Origin: a bacterium
GTDB lineage: Bacteria > SAR324 > JACQKK01
NCBI GenBank assembly: GCA_965249525.1
Contig: OZ252237.1
Coordinates: 1,413,705-1,477,704, forward strand
Direction: 5' to 3'
DNA: 64,000 bases
Shown here one piece after another: positions 40,642 to 48,359 of this stretch; position 1 is the stretch's first letter, and each line of letters starts with the position of its first letter. The position numbers and the translations under genes are program-made. The notes beneath the pieces were generated by a model. The model was not told the DNA's origin. It made no database searches and worked only from the letters and a program-made list of their open reading frames with translations.

Positions 40642-41637
40642 TTATTTCACCAGATTGAGGGCAACTTCCACCATACGGTTGCAATAGCCCCATTCGTTGT
40701 CATACCAGGAGAGTACTTTTGCCAGGTGACCTCCCACCACCTTGGTAGAGAGGGCATCCAAGATAGAAGAGTGGGGATTGCCTTTGAAATCTATCGATAC
40801 TAGAGGTTCTTCGCAATATTGCAAAATATTTTTCAGCTGACCTTGGGCTGCGACCTTCATGGCAGCATTGATGTCTTGCTTGCTGGCGGGCTTGGTCAGG
40901 GTAACGGTGAGATCCACCACCGAACAGGTGGAGGTAGGCACACGGATAGCAAAGCCGTCCAGCTTTCCTTTGAGTTCTGGCATGACCATGCCAATGGCGC
41001 GCGCTGCCCCAGTGGTGGTGGGAATCATAGAAAGCGCCGCCGCACGTGCCCGTCTTAAATCTGAGTGGGGTTGATCTAGCGTGTGTTGGTCGTTGGTATA
41101 GGCGTGAATGGTGTTCATCAGACCGCTTTCAATCCCCCAATGCTCGTGCAGGACTTTTGCCACAGGCGCCAGGCAGTTGGTGGTGCATGATGCGTTAGAC
41201 AGCACATGGTGATGGTTGGCATCATAGCTGTCCAGGTTCACTCCCTTGACAATGGTCAAGTCCACTTCCTTGGCGGGGGCAGAGATGAGCACCTTGAGTG
41301 CGCCTGCCTGTATATGAGCGGAGGCAGAGGATTTGTCTGCAAAGCGGCCAGTGCATTCCAACATCACTTGTACCCCTTGTTCTTTTAGGGGCAGCTTGGC
41401 GGGCTGCGTCTCTGAAGTAACCAGGATTTTTTTCCCGTCCACTACCAGATGGTTGCCTTCTGTGTGTACCTCTCCATTAAAGACTCCGTAGTTGGAGTCA
41501 TATTTAAGCAGGTGTGCCAGAGTTTCTACTGCGGCTAAGTCGTTAATCAGTTTAATATCAAAACCATTTTCACCATGGGCAGCACGCAGGACATTGCGTC
41601 CTATGCGCCCAAATCCGTTAATACCAATAGCAGTCAT
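40642..41637 (-). CDS. gap: glyceraldehyde-3-phosphate dehydrogenase
   Basis: Start at MTAIGINGFGRIGRNVLRA. Active site SNASCTTNCLAP. Confidence 0.9.
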   Translation of the reverse strand: MTAIGINGFGRIGRNVLRAAHGENGFDIKLINDLAAVETLAHLLKYDSNYGVFNGEVHTEGNHLVVDGKKILVTSETQPAKLPLKEQGVQVMLECTGRFADKSSASAHIQAGALKVLISAPAKEVDLTIVKGVNLDSYDANHHHVLSNASCTTNCLAPVAKVLHEHWGIESGLMNTIHAYTNDQHTLDQPHSDLRRARAAALSMIPTTTGAARAIGMVMPELKGKLDGFAIRVPTSTCSVVDLTVTLTKPASKQDINAAMKVAAQGQLKNILQYCEEPLVSIDFKGNPHSSILDALSTKVVGGHLAKVLSWYDNEWGYCNRMVEVALNLVK

Positions 41638-41794
41638 AAATAGATCTCCAAGGTTATAAAAAATAAACAGACAGGATACAGGACTGCCCACATCCGCCAA
41701 TGGATACCCATGTGGGTGGCAAACTTTGATGTTAACTGGGCAAGGCAAGCATGCAGTGAATATTCATCCATTTGCAATAAGAATTTCACCAGGC

Positions 41795-41900
41795 GTAGCC
41801 CTTGTAGAAATAGCCCTTGTAGAAATAGCCCTTGTAGAAATAGCCCTTGTAGAAATAGCCCCTGTAGAAATAGCCCCTGTAGAAATAGCCCTTGGGAAGT
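41795..41900. repeat. 15-bp tandem repeat x6-7 (TAGAAATAGCCCTTG)
   Basis: Read directly. pgk-gap spacer. Confidence 0.9.
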
Positions 41901-41949: not shown

Positions 41950-43146
41950 TTAAGCGGGGGAGACATCGGTCAGTGCGGCCAGTCCTGGAAGGATTTTCCC
42001 CTCTAGAAATTCCAAGCTGGCGCCACCACCGGTAGAGACATGGGTAACTTGCTTAGCCAAGCCCATTTGGCGAATAGCAGCCACGGAATCACCCCCACCC
42101 ACCACAGTGGTGCCATTAGAGATTGCCATGGCTTTGGCAATAGCCAATGTCCCCTCAGCAAAGGCTGGTTGCTCAAACACTCCCATGGGACCGTTCCAGA
42201 GTATCAGTTGGGCGCGTGAGATGCTGTTGGTGTACGCCAAACGGGTGGTGGGACCAATATCCAGCCCCATCATGCCTTGGGGAATATCCACCCCACAGAC
42301 AATAGCTTGCTCGGAGGCCTCCACAGCAGGAGCAACCACATGATCTAGCGGCAACAACAATGACTTCCCCTGTGGGCCGCATTCTGCCAACAATTCCGCA
42401 GCCAAGCCAAGTTGCTCTTCTTCCACCAACGATTTTCCCACGCCCTTGCCTTGTGATTTGAGAAAAGTGTATGCCATAGCTCCACCGATCATCACGGTAT
42501 CCACTTTCGCCAACAAAGCCCGAATGACGCCTATCTTGTCAGACACTTTTGCTCCCCCCAAAATAGCTATGGATAGCTTCTTGCGGCGTTTTTGGAATAT
42601 TCCGTGTAAAAATTGTACTTCCTGCGCAATCAGCAAGCCGCAGGCAGCCTGCTTAAAACAGCGCGGCAGGGCATCGGTAGAGGCATGGGCGCGATGCAAT
42701 ACCCCAAAAGCATCGCTTACGAAAATATCTCCCAATTCTGCCAACTGACGGGCAAATTGTTTATCGTTGGCAGTTTCACCCGCATGAAAACGCAGGTTTT
42801 CTAACAGCAGTACCTGGCCAGGCTGCAAACTTTCCACCGCTTCCTTGGCTTTTGAACCCACTGTGTGAGCACAAAAACCTACCTCTTGCTGCAACAAATC
42901 TCCCAGGGACTCAGCCACCGGTCTCAGCGAGTACTTCTCCACCCGCTCCCCCTTGGGACGCCCCAAATGCGATATCAGCACCAGCCTCCCTTCCTGCTGC
43001 AAAATGTGCCGAATGCTGGGCAGCACACCAACAATGCGGGTGTTATCGCTTACCTGTCCTTTTTCATCCAGCGGGACATTGAAGTCCACCCGCATTAAGA
43101 TCCGTAGACCTTGCATTTCCAATTCTGTTATATAAAGCTTATTCAC
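41950..43146 (-). CDS. pgk: phosphoglycerate kinase
   Basis: 398 aa. N-terminus ...LRILMRVDFNVPLDEKGQVSDNTRI and C-terminal STGGGASLE. Confidence 0.9.
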   Translation of the reverse strand: MNKLYITELEMQGLRILMRVDFNVPLDEKGQVSDNTRIVGVLPSIRHILQQEGRLVLISHLGRPKGERVEKYSLRPVAESLGDLLQQEVGFCAHTVGSKAKEAVESLQPGQVLLLENLRFHAGETANDKQFARQLAELGDIFVSDAFGVLHRAHASTDALPRCFKQAACGLLIAQEVQFLHGIFQKRRKKLSIAILGGAKVSDKIGVIRALLAKVDTVMIGGAMAYTFLKSQGKGVGKSLVEEEQLGLAAELLAECGPQGKSLLLPLDHVVAPAVEASEQAIVCGVDIPQGMMGLDIGPTTRLAYTNSISRAQLILWNGPMGVFEQPAFAEGTLAIAKAMAISNGTTVVGGGDSVAAIRQMGLAKQVTHVSTGGGASLEFLEGKILPGLAALTDVSPA

Positions 43147-43437: not shown

Positions 43438-44373
43438 ATGAACAAGCAGTCGTCTGTCCCTTTACACGTACAGCTAAAAGAACAAATCCGTTACGCCATC
43501 CTCAACAACAGCTACCGTCCAGGAGAATTACTGCCCTCCATCCGCGAACTCACAGCACAACTGGGCATTCATCGCAATACAGTACATCGGGTGTATCTGG
43601 AACTTCAAGCCAGCGGATTGTTGATATCACTGCCAGGAAAAGGAGTCTGTGTCAGCGAAAATCTTGCCCATCCCATCTCCCGACCCGAACTGCACCGATT
43701 GGACCAACTGATTGAAGGTTTCTTTGATGAAGCCAACACCCTGGGAATTAATGCCATCACCCTCAGTCGACTGACAGAACAAAAGGCTGCAGACCACGAC
43801 ATCCGTAAGCCCATCGCTGCTTTTGTGGAGTGCACCGAGCACCAATCCCAACAAATGTCAAAAACTCTCTCAGAACATTTGGGCATTCACGTACAACATG
43901 TGCTCTTGGAAAACCTGCGCCTGCATCCAACAGGTTTAAGCACCCACCTAAAACATGTCATCACCAGTGTTTTTCACTATGACGAAGTCACTACCCTCTT
44001 ACATCAGCAGCAACGTCGTATTCATGCCCTTACCTTTCAGCTGCATCCTGCCAGCAAAGAACAACTGAGCATCATAGACGCCAAACTCTCGCTGATTTTC
44101 ATTTGCCATGATGCCAACACAGAAGAAGTCATCGGCAAAGAAATACAAGATGCCTCCCCCGCCAACATCTCTTTTAATTGTGCCAATTTGGAAGCCCCCG
44201 AGCATGCCTTGGAATTGCTAAAAAAATCCCAGGTGGTGGCCATAACCGAGCCTGCCATCCCCTTTTGCATCAAACACTGCACCCCTCAGCAGCAATTGAT
44301 TGAACTGCATTTCTCCTTGGGACATCCCTCAGTGGAAAAGGTGGCTGGTATGCTCTTGTACAAGCCCTTTTAA
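43438..44373 (+). CDS. GntR-family transcriptional regulator with an uncharacterised C-terminal domain
   Basis: N-terminal winged HTH LPSIRELTAQLGIHRNTVHRVYLELQASGLL. Start set at MNKQSSVPLHVQL. Confidence 0.6.
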   Translation: MNKQSSVPLHVQLKEQIRYAILNNSYRPGELLPSIRELTAQLGIHRNTVHRVYLELQASGLLISLPGKGVCVSENLAHPISRPELHRLDQLIEGFFDEANTLGINAITLSRLTEQKAADHDIRKPIAAFVECTEHQSQQMSKTLSEHLGIHVQHVLLENLRLHPTGLSTHLKHVITSVFHYDEVTTLLHQQQRRIHALTFQLHPASKEQLSIIDAKLSLIFICHDANTEEVIGKEIQDASPANISFNCANLEAPEHALELLKKSQVVAITEPAIPFCIKHCTPQQQLIELHFSLGHPSVEKVAGMLLYKPF

Positions 44374-44589
44374 GGAAAAACCCCCGCAGCAAAAACCACA
44401 GCAAAAACCTTGTACAAGCATGCCCCATAGAAAGGCTTTCAAGGACAATTGTGGTATATAAGTAATGAACTGCCGCCAGGGAGTTGCTTTTGCTAGGGTA
44501 TTACAAAGAAATTTTACTACTTAACTGACTGAAACAACATATTATTTGGATTTTACAATCTTTTTGGCTACCAGAACAAAATTTTTTTG

Positions 44590-44625
44590 TTTTTTGCCGT
44601 TCAATAGGTTATAATATTTTGGTTG
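44590..44625 (+). promoter_or_regulatory. putative sigma70-type promoter (TTGTTT-17-TATAAT) and RBS for the Panacea-domain gene
   Basis: TTGTTTTTTGCCGTTCAATAGGTTATAAT gives a perfect -10 hexamer with 17-bp spacing. GGAGAAAAGG lies upstream of ATG 44660. Confidence 0.3.
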
Positions 44626-44626
44626 C

Positions 44627-45121
44627 TTGTTTTATACAAATATATTGGAGAAAAGGCTTATGAGTTACAAAGGATACATTATTGCAAATACCATTCTCAA
44701 AATAGGAGATGACAAGGGCATTCCTATGACGCATTTGAAATTACAAAAGATGCTTTTCTTTATGTGTGGATTTTATTTTGCTACACATGATGATAAGCTG
44801 ATTGATGAAGATTTTGAGGTATGGGATTATGGACCTGTTATTCCAGATGTTTATCATAAATTCAAAAAATTTAAGCATGAATATATTACCAATCTTTATC
44901 AAGATAATGATAACAATATAGAAATAATATCAAGAAAAGATGAGAAATTTTATTCTATTGTAGAAAAATACTATGATAAATACATAGTTTTAGGCGAATG
45001 GGATATGGTGTACAAAACACATGATATTGGTACTCCCTGGGCGGAAGCAAAAAAGAATAAAGAAACAAAAATACAGCATGAAGATATGAGAAAAACTTTT
45101 AAGGATGAAATTGCTAAATGA
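44627..45121 (+). CDS. Panacea-domain (DUF4065, SocA/PanA-like) antitoxin-type protein, inside the AT-rich islet
   Basis: 164 aa. Core LKLQKMLFFMCGFYFA...DEDFEVWDYGPVIPDVYHKFKKF matches the conserved DUF4065 pattern (LKLQKLLY...FEAW.YGPV.P.VY..FK). Codon usage and base composition are strongly AT-biased versus neighbours. An alternative start at MSYKGY (44660) has a GGAGAAAAGG RBS. Confidence 0.65.
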   Translation: MFYTNILEKRLMSYKGYIIANTILKIGDDKGIPMTHLKLQKMLFFMCGFYFATHDDKLIDEDFEVWDYGPVIPDVYHKFKKFKHEYITNLYQDNDNNIEIISRKDEKFYSIVEKYYDKYIVLGEWDMVYKTHDIGTPWAEAKKNKETKIQHEDMRKTFKDEIAK

Positions 45122-45336
45122 AGCCAGAAATTGTATCCCCAAGTGATGCTACTTTAAAAGAAGCTATGGGCACAAAAACATTAGGAATAGTTTATGGTAT
45201 TATAGAATTAAACGCTGAATCACAACAAAGAATGATAGAGACTATTGTTAGTGAAAAAAGAAAAATTTTTATCTTTATGTTAGTTCTATATTCTATTTTA
45301 ATAATTGCCTTTATCTTCTGTTGTTTTTTCAAGTAA
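45118..45336 (+). CDS. small membrane-anchored protein (72 aa), candidate toxin partner of the Panacea-domain gene
   Basis: ATG overlaps the upstream stop (ATGA). Soluble N-terminal ~50 aa, then one C-terminal TM helix IFIFMLVLYSILIIAFIFCCFF ending in K. Same AT-rich composition. Confidence 0.45.
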   Translation: MKPEIVSPSDATLKEAMGTKTLGIVYGIIELNAESQQRMIETIVSEKRKIFIFMLVLYSILIIAFIFCCFFK

Positions 45337-45473
45337 ATGATTGCGATGATGAAATCCTCATTAACCAGGTTCTTGGAATACTTAAGGATTGAAATCAAAC
45401 CATCAATCAAGAAAGGCTAGCGGACTAAATAGCACCCCTCTTGAGGGCTGGATGAAAACAGGCGGAGGATGAG

Positions 45474-46439
45474 GTGTTGACAGGTGCGCTGCGATTGGGG
45501 ACACGAGGCAGTCGGTTGGCTGTGCTGCAGACACGCTGGGTGGCGTCCCGCCTGCGTGATGCCTGGCCCAAGCTGGATTGTGAGATTTGCGTGTTGGAGT
45601 CGGCAGGAGACAAATTTGCAGCCACATCGGTTGCAGCTTTGCACGCAGGACAAGGGGCGGGGGTTTTCCATAGTGCTTTGGAAAAAGCCTTATTAGCCGA
45701 TGAAGTGGATGTGGTGGTGGCATCATGCAAAGATATTGAGTCAGATTCGCCACAGGGATTGCAATGGTGTGCGGTGGGGGAACGAGAAGAAGTACGGGAT
45801 GTGTTGGTAAGTCAGCACAGGGGGCTGGAACAACTGCCCCCAGGGGCATGCTTAGGCACCAGCAGCCTGCGCAGACAAAGTCAGCTGAGCGGCTGGCGAG
45901 GAGATTTATCGTTCGCCCCCTTGAGGGGCAATGTGAATACACGGGTAGAACATGCACTGAAAGCCAGCAGCGAGGCATGCGATGGGGTGGTGGTAGCAGC
46001 AGCAGGAGTACATCGGCTGGGAATGCAGGCGCACATTACCGATTACATTGATTTGGAAATTCTGCTGCCTGCTCCGGCCCAAGGAGCATTGGCATGCCAA
46101 TACCTTGGGGGACGCAAAGATATTTTGCGCATGCTGGCCCCCCTGGGCAGCGAGGTTGTAGAATGCTGTGTAAGGACAGAACGTCGTTTGCTGGCCAACC
46201 TGAGTGGCGGCTGCTTTGCCCCCGTGGGAGCATTTGCCTGGATAGAAAAGCATCAGCTGCAATTGTGGGGGCGGGTGACATCGCTTGATGGTCAGCAAAC
46301 AGCATCTGCCAGGGCTAAGGGAACCTCCGCAGACTGGCAGCTTTTGGCAAACGAAGTGACTCGCCAATTACGCCAGCAAAATGCCTTAGCCATAATGGCT
46401 GATGCCAGAAAGAGCGTATCAGCAGCCCATCAAAATTGA
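45474..46439 (+). CDS. hemC: hydroxymethylbilane synthase (porphobilinogen deaminase)
   Basis: N-terminus LRLGTRGSRLAVLQT. Conserved Cys for the dipyrromethane cofactor near the C-terminal domain. Confidence 0.85.
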   Translation: MLTGALRLGTRGSRLAVLQTRWVASRLRDAWPKLDCEICVLESAGDKFAATSVAALHAGQGAGVFHSALEKALLADEVDVVVASCKDIESDSPQGLQWCAVGEREEVRDVLVSQHRGLEQLPPGACLGTSSLRRQSQLSGWRGDLSFAPLRGNVNTRVEHALKASSEACDGVVVAAAGVHRLGMQAHITDYIDLEILLPAPAQGALACQYLGGRKDILRMLAPLGSEVVECCVRTERRLLANLSGGCFAPVGAFAWIEKHQLQLWGRVTSLDGQQTASARAKGTSADWQLLANEVTRQLRQQNALAIMADARKSVSAAHQN

Positions 46440-46471
46440 TAAACTGCATGGATAAACTGCATTGATAAACT

Positions 46472-47419
46472 TTGAAAGCAGCAGCACAACCAGATGAAAC
46501 TGGAAGAGAAGAGAAACAGTCACAGCAAAATATCTGGCAAACCCCTAGTTGGATGGTAGATAGCCTAAGGAATTTTATGAAGCAGCCCATTTGGAAATTG
46601 CAGCCAATTTTTTATAAGCCATGGTTCAGGCGGGGAGTGGGGTTGATGCTGGCTGTATGGTGTTGGCAAGTCTCAAGCCCTCAGCAGGCACAAGGATATC
46701 TGCCAGATATAGACACGGTCTGGAGTTGGGTGGCAGAGCGTTCGCTAGTGGCAGAACGCGCCATTATAACAGCACATACCACGGTGTTTGGGAAATCCTC
46801 AGGAGAAGATGATTTACAGCAGGAGATACCCTCGCGCAACTGGCAGCAGACTATTTACTGGATAGCAGGAGAGTTTTTAGCAGTGGAAACCAATGCTACC
46901 GATGGAGAACAACTGCATTTGTATTTGCGAGAGGGTGACCAAGAGTGGCAGCAGCGTTTGGGAAGGAAACGCTGGAGTATGCGGGATGTGATGCCGCCAT
47001 ATTTGGATTTACTAGAGAATAGTCCCGAGGCTTGGCAGTCTCATTTGGGTTTTTGGGGGGTAAATCCGCATCAAACACTGTTGGGTAATCATCCACAACT
47101 GGGATATTTGCTGCTGCTAGCAGAAAATGCCCACAAAGCTTTGTGGCTGAATCAAAAGCCTTTTCGGCCGGTGCGGCTAGAGACCAGGATTCAAGGCAAG
47201 CAAGGGGAATATGCTTTAGCGCAACACTATGAAAATTTTCTATTGTTCACCAATAGAAAATTGTTTCTTACACAAACGGCATATTTTCCTTCTCGGGTGA
47301 GTTATACACTGAATGGCATACTGTTTAAGCAATTTCAGGTGCTGAGTTTTAAGGTGAACCCTCCGTTAAAAGATTTTCCTATGCAGCGTCTGCGCCAGGA
47401 GGTCAGAAATGATCGCTAG
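46472..47419 (+). CDS. hypothetical protein (first gene of an overlapping three-gene cluster with PPIase and LpoA-like genes)
   Basis: 315 aa. No recognised motif. Confidence 0.3.
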   Translation: MKAAAQPDETGREEKQSQQNIWQTPSWMVDSLRNFMKQPIWKLQPIFYKPWFRRGVGLMLAVWCWQVSSPQQAQGYLPDIDTVWSWVAERSLVAERAIITAHTTVFGKSSGEDDLQQEIPSRNWQQTIYWIAGEFLAVETNATDGEQLHLYLREGDQEWQQRLGRKRWSMRDVMPPYLDLLENSPEAWQSHLGFWGVNPHQTLLGNHPQLGYLLLLAENAHKALWLNQKPFRPVRLETRIQGKQGEYALAQHYENFLLFTNRKLFLTQTAYFPSRVSYTLNGILFKQFQVLSFKVNPPLKDFPMQRLRQEVRNDR

Positions 47420-48359
47420 GATAGCATTGGGGGGTTTTGCTGCTGGCATACTATGGGCGTGGTTGGTTATCCCCATGTCCCAGCAGACCTGGGCAGCACC
47501 ATTACTGGTAGATCGCATCAAGATAGCAGTCAATAAAAAAGCCATTACCGAAAGAGAGTTTCAGTTATTAAAGCAGGTGCGTGAACGCGAGCTGCGCCAG
47601 CAGCTGCAAGGCAGAGCATTACAAGAACAGCTGCGTAATTTGGGCAAGAATTTACAGCAGGAATTGGTAGAAAGTTTGCTGTTGGAGGATCATGCGGAGC
47701 GGTTGTCGTTATCGGTGAGTAACAGCCAGGTAGAACGACAGATGGAATTGCTGCGCCAAAGGAGTGCAGAAATATTGAAAAAGATGGGCGAAGCACAGGC
47801 ACGCCAGTTGGTGGTGCGGCAATTGTTGAGTCAGCGGGTGGTGAGACAAGAGGTGGCAGCAAAGATATTGGTATCTGAAGAACAGGTAGCAGCTGCCTGC
47901 AAGGAAGATTCTTCAGCAAATTACGAGGTGGATGTAGGACATATTCTGCGCAAAGAGAGCTCCGCAGCACAGCGTAAGCGACTGTTACAACTGCGCCAAC
48001 AGTTGCTGTCAGGCGCCAATTTTGCTGCCCTGGCCCAACGGCATTCAGAAGATCCCTCCGTTAAGCAAAATAAAGGGCGCCTAGGATATGTCCAACGTGG
48101 CCAGTTGGTGCTGCCTTTTGAAGAAGCGGCCTTCGCACTGCGACCAGGCCAAGTAAGTTCGCCTGTGAAAACCAGATTTGGGCTGCATTTGATTATGGTT
48201 TTCAATCGCCGCCAAGCAGGACAACGAGACTGCAACCAGATAACCTTGCAAGAAAGACAACGTCTCAGTCAGCAAATTCGTCAGCACCAACAACAACAAC
48301 GATTGCAAAAACTGTTGCTGGATTTGCGCAACCGCTCCGATGTTCAGGTGCAACAATGA
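47409..48359 (+). CDS. SurA/PpiD-like periplasmic chaperone with parvulin-type PPIase domain
   Basis: N-terminal signal anchor. Parvulin motif RLGYVQRGQLVLPFEEAAFALRPGQVSSPVKTRFGLHLIMV. Confidence 0.65.
   Translation: MIARIALGGFAAGILWAWLVIPMSQQTWAAPLLVDRIKIAVNKKAITEREFQLLKQVRERELRQQLQGRALQEQLRNLGKNLQQELVESLLLEDHAERLSLSVSNSQVERQMELLRQRSAEILKKMGEAQARQLVVRQLLSQRVVRQEVAAKILVSEEQVAAACKEDSSANYEVDVGHILRKESSAAQRKRLLQLRQQLLSGANFAALAQRHSEDPSVKQNKGRLGYVQRGQLVLPFEEAAFALRPGQVSSPVKTRFGLHLIMVFNRRQAGQRDCNQITLQERQRLSQQIRQHQQQQRLQKLLLDLRNRSDVQVQQ

Follow-up and report, generated by a model that had tools for sequence, protein, structure and literature searches.

Introduction

The Panacea domain was named by Kurata et al. 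2022 (PMC8832971), who validated nine toxins (PanTs) that are neutralised by antitoxins of this type (PanAs). Three PanTs with predicted transmembrane regions, from E. coli, Bartonella apis and Helicobacter, shut down transcription, translation and replication indiscriminately, which is consistent with membrane disruption, and depolarisation as well as permeabilisation were directly shown for the E. coli and Bartonella PanTs. Many small peptides with transmembrane helices were among the predicted PanTs. In the dataset of that study, the systems with membrane PanTs have a 'noNTD' PanA, the gene order A|T and an intergenic distance of -26 to +22 nt, including -4. Here, we describe a small open reading frame (ORF) that overlaps the stop codon of a Panacea-domain gene, panA, in a stretch of 64,000 nucleotides from contig OZ252237.1 (positions 1,413,705 to 1,477,704; the whole stretch is called the window, and positions are counted from its first letter). 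The ORF encodes a 72-aa protein, which we take, with a probability of roughly 60%, to be the PanT toxin of a two-gene PanA/PanT type II toxin-antitoxin (TA) cassette. A PanA/PanT pair with a membrane-targeting toxin is a class already described; the 72-aa protein would be an unusually small, single-pass addition to it that is an orphan in sequence.

Comparison with Described Systems

The window pair has the architecture of the T3 and T12 (D11) systems: a charged head with a disordered N-terminus, a C-terminal transmembrane region, a Panacea-only PanA, the order A|T and a gap of -4. In the PanA-PanT pair of Bartonella apis (choladocola), T12 or NetFlax D11 (WP_077993240.1 / WP_077993242.1), a standalone Panacea antitoxin also comes first and is followed at a short gap (+4). 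Its toxin, which experimentally depolarises, resembles the 72-aa protein in that a non-membrane N-terminal region precedes the C-terminal transmembrane region. The two were compared by description only; the 72-aa protein is single-pass, ends one residue past the helix and has no detectable sequence relative. For the Bartonella toxin, PanT_D11, Ernits et al. 2023 (PMC10440598) predicted contacts of Panacea with the unstructured N-terminal region and with the short helix just ahead of the transmembrane region; the Panacea exchanges Y56A or H120E abolish neutralisation.

In the T3 pair of the Shiga toxin-producing E. coli (STEC) and Stx phages (WP_000287252.1 / WP_000019185.1), the protein encoded after PanA likewise has a charged N-terminus, and its C-terminus is hydrophobic. 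This PanT starts after a gap of 22 nt and is a validated membrane depolariser. The same geometry is found in Escherichia phage 1720a-02 (KF030445.1), where the genes of a 162-aa PanA and a 182-aa partner lie 22 nt apart. Unlike the 72-aa protein, this partner has a long acidic head (about 115 residues), and its C-terminal end holds more than one hydrophobic segment; BLASTP of one against the other gave no alignment at E<=100. As a side observation, the 162-aa PanA gene of the phage (395-883 of its genome) is unannotated in the deposited record, and its membrane partner AGR48396.1 (182 aa) is annotated as hypothetical.

The Helicobacter-type PanT is a downstream, overlapping and membrane-targeting PanA partner, as is proposed for the window pair; it differs from the 72-aa protein in its coiled-coil head with C-terminal transmembrane helices, is four times longer and multi-pass, and is unrelated in sequence. 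RmrT_D5 of the RosmerTA system from Gordonia phage Kita also has a C-terminal membrane region, depolarises and defends against phages (PMC10440598). The RosmerTA antitoxin is an ImmA-protease family protein and not, as in the window, a Panacea protein.

In the type VI system SocAB of Caulobacter, SocA is the founding Panacea-domain antitoxin. SocB is a soluble inhibitor of the replication clamp and SocA a ClpXP adaptor. The window PanA reaches 92.5 bits against the NCBIfam model SocA_antitoxin, far under the equivalog cut-off of 190, and its partner, unlike SocB, is a predicted membrane peptide without any family match. A SocB/SocAB type VI reading was rejected on these two grounds.

In size, the 72-aa protein is similar to HokB, TisB and the type V toxin GhoT, which are small helical peptides that depolarise the membrane. 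Their antitoxin is an RNA or an RNase, whereas the window pair has a Panacea protein. The size and hydrophobicity of the Hok/TisB class are also what could suggest a type I-like system, in which an antisense RNA mainly controls the hydrophobic peptide and panA is unrelated to its control, and minus-strand promoter-like hexamers do lie within the start of the 72-aa ORF. These promoter-like matches are, however, at shuffle level (7 vs 4.7 +/- 1.8 expected). No Rfam family was found in 44300-45500 at the gathering threshold or at E<=1, except IS009 (E=0.18, 17 bits vs a cut-off of 117), and the ATGA overlap with the gene of a protein antitoxin points to control at the protein level, such that we hold antisense control, which would have to come from a novel RNA, to be very improbable. 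A known type I toxin was rejected as well, with no Pfam toxin family and no Rfam antisense family at the locus. An earlier reading of the window made from the letters alone (the sequence-only reading) had spoken of a toxin in the style of types I and II; the type II part of this claim stands, while the type I part has to be dropped, since no antisense RNA family was found.

The 72-aa Protein and Its Panacea Neighbour

The ORF exists on the plus strand with a translation identical to the residues given by the sequence-only reading, and the proposed overlap of the two genes was confirmed by direct reading of the sequence: in the ATGA at 45118-45121, the panT ATG occupies 45118-45120 and the panA TGA 45119-45121. 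The pair thus looks like a PanAT operon in that both genes lie on the same strand, overlap by 4 nt and are alone on a small genomic islet, which is described below. Translation of panT more likely depends on the ATGA coupling than on the AAGGA site upstream of it.

Residues 50-71 (IFIFMLVLYSILIIAFIFCCFF) form an unbroken apolar stretch, directly preceded by KRK and followed by K72 alone before the stop codon. This agrees with the C-terminal transmembrane helix of the sequence-only reading. That reading had further described a soluble head of 48 residues, and the solubility of the head is the doubtful part of this description. The head (residues 1-49) carries seven positive and seven negative charges. 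Its residues 21-31 form a patch of moderate hydrophobicity with GxxxG, and it is modelled as continuous with the membrane helix. In the single-sequence AlphaFold2 model, residues 1-8 are disordered and residues 9-71 form one continuous helix, at a mean predicted local distance difference test score (pLDDT) of 83.7. Residues 33-48 make up an amphipathic juxtamembrane helix with a hydrophobic moment (muH) of about 0.5, which ends in KRK. The coordinates of all features are collected in Table 1.

Table 1. Features of the two-gene islet and of the neighbouring genes, in window coordinates.
Feature	Position	Strand	Basis or remark
Candidate panT, 72-aa ORFan, predicted tail-anchored	45118..45336	+	ATG overlaps panA stop
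Predicted cytosolic head, residues 1-49	45118..45264	+	AlphaFold2 single-sequence model, hydrophobic moment
Transmembrane segment, residues 50-71	45265..45330	+	Kyte-Doolittle 19-residue maximum 3.05; model pLDDT 98
Weak AAGGA Shine-Dalgarno-like site	45101..45105	+	12 nt before panT ATG, from sequence
panA, standalone Panacea-domain antitoxin, 153 aa from ATG, no extra N-terminal domain	44660..45121	+	Pfam PF13274
GGAG Shine-Dalgarno-like site	44647..44650	+	9 nt before panA ATG, from sequence
Putative sigma-70-type promoter for panA-panT, TTGTTT-17 nt-TATAAT	44587..44615	+	Proposed by eye
Islet, 1,070 bp, probably foreign	44380..45449		blastn and junction alignments vs sister strain; composition
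hemC-like haem-biosynthesis gene	45474..46439		GTG start
GAPDH gene	40642..41748	-	
15-nt tandem repeat	41796-41894		6.6 copies, 97% matches
PGK gene	41950..43146	-	

PanA matches the Pfam model SocA_Panacea (PF13274) with 53.9 bits (cut-off 25.7; E=4e-14) over profile positions 1-112 of 113, and it matches phrog_1281 at 6.6e-33. The closest PanA proteins are about 30-38% identical to it, and the ATG at 44660 agrees better with the N-termini of homologues than the TTG at 44627. An AlphaFold2 model built from an alignment of eight sequences (pLDDT 91.4) shows seven helices and a beta hairpin, and the order of helices and strands equals the published Panacea topology of seven helices and two strands (PMC10440598). 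With this model, Foldseek found no structure in the PDB (best E=5.5), and the family profile found none among the PDB sequences (best E=0.17). In the PDB copies searched, the Panacea fold seems to have no solved representative. PanA carries H121 and, as the tyrosine of WDYGP, Y57; H121, W55, G58 and P59 do not vary among its relatives, and position 57 is either Tyr or Phe (alignment A1). Y57 and H121 are presumably the counterparts of the mutated Bartonella residues Y56 and H120, the Bartonella sequence being outside this alignment. As a side observation, residues ~15-103 of PanA weakly match models of the DarG antitoxin (PADLOC PDLC02990, E=0.0012; NCBIfam antitoxin_DarG, E=0.0022). The matched stretch spans profile positions 175-264, which leaves out the N-terminal part of the models, and hints at a remote similarity to the 175-264 region.

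Partners of Other PanA Genes

PanA loci were gathered from species-representative genomes (80) and from viral contigs (80), and their flanks were examined by script. An ORF of at least 40 aa that starts -40 to +60 nt from the PanA stop was taken as a tightly linked downstream partner. Such a partner is present at 66 of the 81 genome loci, and the remaining 15 have none under the same criteria. The partner families vary, as was published for the Panacea antitoxin. Most of the genome partners belong to one soluble family of about 110-155 aa for which there is no Pfam model; five others are larger (194-301 aa) and have strongly hydrophobic C-terminal segments, and the partner in Helicobacter pylori is an acidic, soluble ORF of 58 aa with a 4-nt overlap. 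Among the 67 downstream partners in the viral contigs, membrane proteins account for 26. These are either coiled-coil proteins of 220-330 aa with C-terminal transmembrane helices, or proteins of 111-172 aa whose head is acidic and whose C-terminal region is hydrophobic; Helicobacter-like partners of 220-330 aa are numerous in both genome and viral PanA loci. The 72-aa ORF has the position and orientation that are typical of a partner, and membrane partners are common, while the protein itself is unique.

The prevalent soluble family of ~110-155 aa (loci L010-L084, e.g., L014 3394-3807) ends in a motif like GRIIGKLINKVFYIFYID.KG.LYNH. Its best Pfam match is DUF5121 (E=0.035), which is below threshold, and the family is probably one of the published, uncharacterised PanT clusters.

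The suggested role of the 72-aa protein, that of toxin to a Panacea antitoxin, thus gains support from the PF13274 match, from the linked partners in 66 of 81 genome loci, from the 26 of 67 membrane partners in viral contigs and from the published analogues. The same comparison bears on a different explanation, namely that the protein is real but non-toxic: a tether or partner of PanA in a sensor or defence module, or a superinfection-exclusion or holin-like remnant of a phage. PanA relatives are frequent in phages, panA matches the phage family phrog_1281, and toxicity is a property that we infer for the 72-aa protein. On the other hand, all PanA membrane partners that were experimentally tested in PMC8832971 and PMC10440598 are toxic, no match of the protein to holins, exclusion proteins or defence components was obtained in Pfam, PHROGs or PADLOC, and the islet has no third gene that could act as the effector. 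We therefore regard a non-toxic partner as unlikely. A phage holin or lysis protein in particular was rejected, there being no PHROG or Pfam match and no lysis-cassette or phage-gene neighbours.

A Polymorphic Islet with Exactly Two Genes

A sister strain (ENA ERZ25069801, contig_16) was reached via the neighbouring PGK protein, which is 98% identical at the protein level. Between the stop of a GntR-family gene and the hemC-like gene, the sister strain has 42 bp in place of the 1,070 bp of the islet, and blastn gives 96.2-96.5% nucleotide identity between window and sister strain on both sides. The islet is a presence/absence polymorphism. In a more distant relative (65% PGK protein identity), the GntR gene is missing as well as the islet.

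The AT-rich core of the islet (~44500-45400) has a GC content of 0.24-0.35 vs 0.47-0.59 in the flanks, and the islet overall is about 28% GC. Its gene content is panA and the 72-aa ORF, without a third gene, and these two occupy the sole strongly AT-rich stretch of the 64-kb window, which is at ~0.50 GC elsewhere. Because of this deviant composition, a gain by the window strain is more likely than a loss by its relative, and recent acquisition by horizontal transfer is the simplest explanation. The neighbours of the islet, the GntR-family gene and the hemC-like gene, are native, and there are no phage genes. Neither a recombinase or integrase, nor a tRNA, nor convincing terminal or flanking repeats were found at the islet. 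An islet that carries these two genes and is missing in a close relative is as expected of a self-contained, mobile TA module. The polymorphism between strains of 96% identity would mean that such cassettes move as units of about 1 kb without a recombinase of their own.

Some minor sequence features were noted at the junctions. The 9-nt sequence AGAAAGGCT stands as a direct repeat at 44429 and 45410, which is no more than chance would give. The GntR-family gene ends in 11 nt (CTTGTACAAGC, with the 10-nt palindrome CTTGTACAAG; 44355-44365) that recur 54 nt downstream in window-specific DNA at 44409-44419, a recurrence that was equalled in 9 of 2000 shuffles. Near the right junction, CCCTCTTGAGG (45435-45445) resembles the stop region of the GntR gene in the sister strain, CCCTTTTGAGG (109 of 2000 shuffles). 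These repeats of the GntR end may be the trace of a short target duplication or of a microhomology-mediated insertion, and they stay below the significance needed for a claim.

Absence of Relatives and Tests for Coding

An exhaustive phmmer search of 1.84 billion (1.84e9) representatives with the 72-aa protein returned only the protein itself, and a word-indexed search of 5.8e9 proteins gave no match beyond it. With tblastn, a single match of 34 residues was obtained in phages (E=2, chance level) and nothing significant in plasmids, and degenerate-pattern scans of viral and metagenome contigs likewise yielded nothing significant. There is no relative among 4,977 ORFs around other PanA genes (phmmer), nor beside 164 other PanA genes. 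Pfam, PADLOC and PHROGs contain no family for the protein, and NCBIfam gives a sub-threshold match to CrgA alone (E=0.13, 11.9 bits vs a cut-off of 141). The sequence-only reading was thus right in seeing no obvious family, and homology to a benign housekeeping protein, which it had named as evidence that would speak against a toxin, is not found either: there is no homologue in the 1.84e9 representatives. The 72-aa protein is a strict ORFan. Its lineage has almost no sequenced relatives; the source genome, a single contig of 1,724,560 bp, is without close relatives in the protein collection, where even the hemC-like protein forms a singleton cluster.

The lack of homologues is the first of several points that weigh against the PanT toxin proposed here, as it leaves neither conservation, nor a ratio of nonsynonymous to synonymous substitution rates (dN/dS), nor co-occurrence in support of coding or of the pairing. 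A pairing that is conserved across genomes, the criterion of FlaGs/NetFlax, was not found for PanA and the 72-aa protein; only the downstream position of the partner is conserved. Every membrane partner found for the PanA relatives is larger (111-327 aa), the shorter ones that were inspected have more than one hydrophobic segment, and the 72-aa single-pass form is without precedent in the examined loci. The Shine-Dalgarno-like site of panT is weak and 12 nt away from the ATG. One antisense frame equals panT on codon usage (-3.7), and a mirror ORF of 72 aa runs antisense at 45192..45410. Finally, the authors who introduced NetFlax note that the role of Panacea may be sensory and not purely neutralising, a role that they favour (PMC10440598) and that would also suit the non-toxic partner considered above.

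Most of these points can be brought together in the main sceptical explanation, by which the 72-aa ORF arose by chance in foreign DNA rich in T, and panA is a 'solo' antitoxin, an orphan whose toxin either was lost or was not transferred with it. Strict ORFan status, the weak Shine-Dalgarno-like site and the antisense mirror ORF of equal length are compatible with it, and so are the 15 of 81 PanA loci without a tightly linked downstream ORF. Moreover, the DNA encoding the transmembrane segment is 62% T. Since AT-rich DNA is biased towards codons for Phe, Ile and Leu, a membrane-like stretch could arise by composition alone, but the random-ORF test says otherwise: no more than 0.2% of the random ORFs (72 codons, base composition of the islet) have a comparable membrane-grade stretch, and when the residues of the protein are shuffled, 0.085% of the shuffles do. 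The length of the ORF is also not what a random sequence would readily give. Stop codons are frequent at the locus because the local DNA is about 28% GC, and an ATG-initiated ORF of at least 72 aa occurs in 22 of 5000 shuffles (0.44%) of 45101..45400, counting both strands. The ORF starts exactly on the panA stop (ATGA), in the usual position and orientation of a PanA partner. Among the three sense frames, the panT frame fits the codon usage of panA best (log-likelihood -4.2 vs -54 and -29), and its purine bias at codon position 1 (0.67) is close to that of panA (0.69). Taking both sides together, we consider a chance ORF rather unlikely. The antisense ORF was rejected as a real gene; it has a TTG start without a Shine-Dalgarno site, its whole-length codon fit is poorer (-14.1), and it is coupled to no gene. 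It is treated as a shadow frame.

A further possibility is that the proposed toxin is a very young or de novo gene, which arose at the 3' end of a mobile panA, out of T-rich DNA, and was tolerated through Panacea binding. We see this origin as very unlikely. If it were true, the locus would offer a snapshot of how a hyperpromiscuous antitoxin gains new toxins, and the smallest single-helix substrate for studying how Panacea recognises membrane toxins.

Proposed Mechanism and Significance

For the PanA/PanT cassette, we propose the following course of events, in which translation, toxicity, direct binding, topology and trigger of the 72-aa protein are all what we infer. One promoter would drive panA and then the toxin; the candidate was missed by a strict consensus promoter scan, as its -35 hexamer matches only 3/6. 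Ribosomes that end at the TGA would re-initiate at the overlapping ATG, with the antitoxin coming first, and because of this re-initiation no toxin would be made without prior synthesis of PanA. The transmembrane helix of 22 residues ends one residue before the C-terminus and leaves the ribosome only at termination, so that its insertion should be post-translational. The interval before insertion could let PanA capture the cytosolic head, i.e., the disordered N-terminus and the pre-membrane helix. Bound PanA would keep the toxin out of the membrane or block its oligomerisation.

When PanA is lost, degraded or triggered, e.g., by loss of the cassette or by phage infection, free toxin would be left behind. 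It would insert, oligomerise and dissipate the membrane potential, and growth would stop, as is the case with validated PanTs. An N-in/C-out topology is predicted because KRK lies on the N-terminal side of the helix. Close to the outer end of the helix are two neighbouring cysteines (68-69), which might, as a speculation, stabilise oligomers; in Hok-family peptides, cysteines are found toward the periplasmic end. As to its biological role, the cassette could stabilise the islet post-segregationally or act in abortive infection.

None of this overturns current understanding. What stands out is that the insertion polymorphism is clean, the ORFan status strict and the architecture, with its single helix, minimal; all three points come from an uncultured, deep-branching bacterium with a genome of 1.7 Mb. 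If the 72-aa protein is confirmed as a PanT, the Panacea-neutralised repertoire gains a single-pass, tail-anchored toxin of 72 aa that is an orphan in sequence, and with its short head and one helix this toxin would be well suited to mapping Panacea recognition. A candidate toxin can evidently be without detectable relatives in any database searched.

Neighbouring Genes and Minor Observations

Between the stop of the 72-aa ORF and the GTG of the hemC-like gene (45337-45474), neither a plus-strand terminator nor significant RNA structure was found. This haem-biosynthesis gene may have received read-through from the islet promoter since the insertion.

In the region that corresponds to window positions 45474-48359, genes are called shorter in the sister strain, with 271 vs 321 aa for the hemC-like and 224 vs 316 aa for the SurA-like protein. 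A Mur-ligase gene of the sister strain, which lies outside the region compared with the window, is called as two ORFs (167 + 157 aa). The shortened and split genes are probably due to frameshift errors of that assembly and not to biology.

Between the GAPDH and PGK genes of the window, a 15-nt unit (TAGCCCTTGTAGAAA) forms a near-perfect tandem repeat. Four exact copies of the unit are present in the window vs none in the sister strain, and the array may thus be strain-variable.

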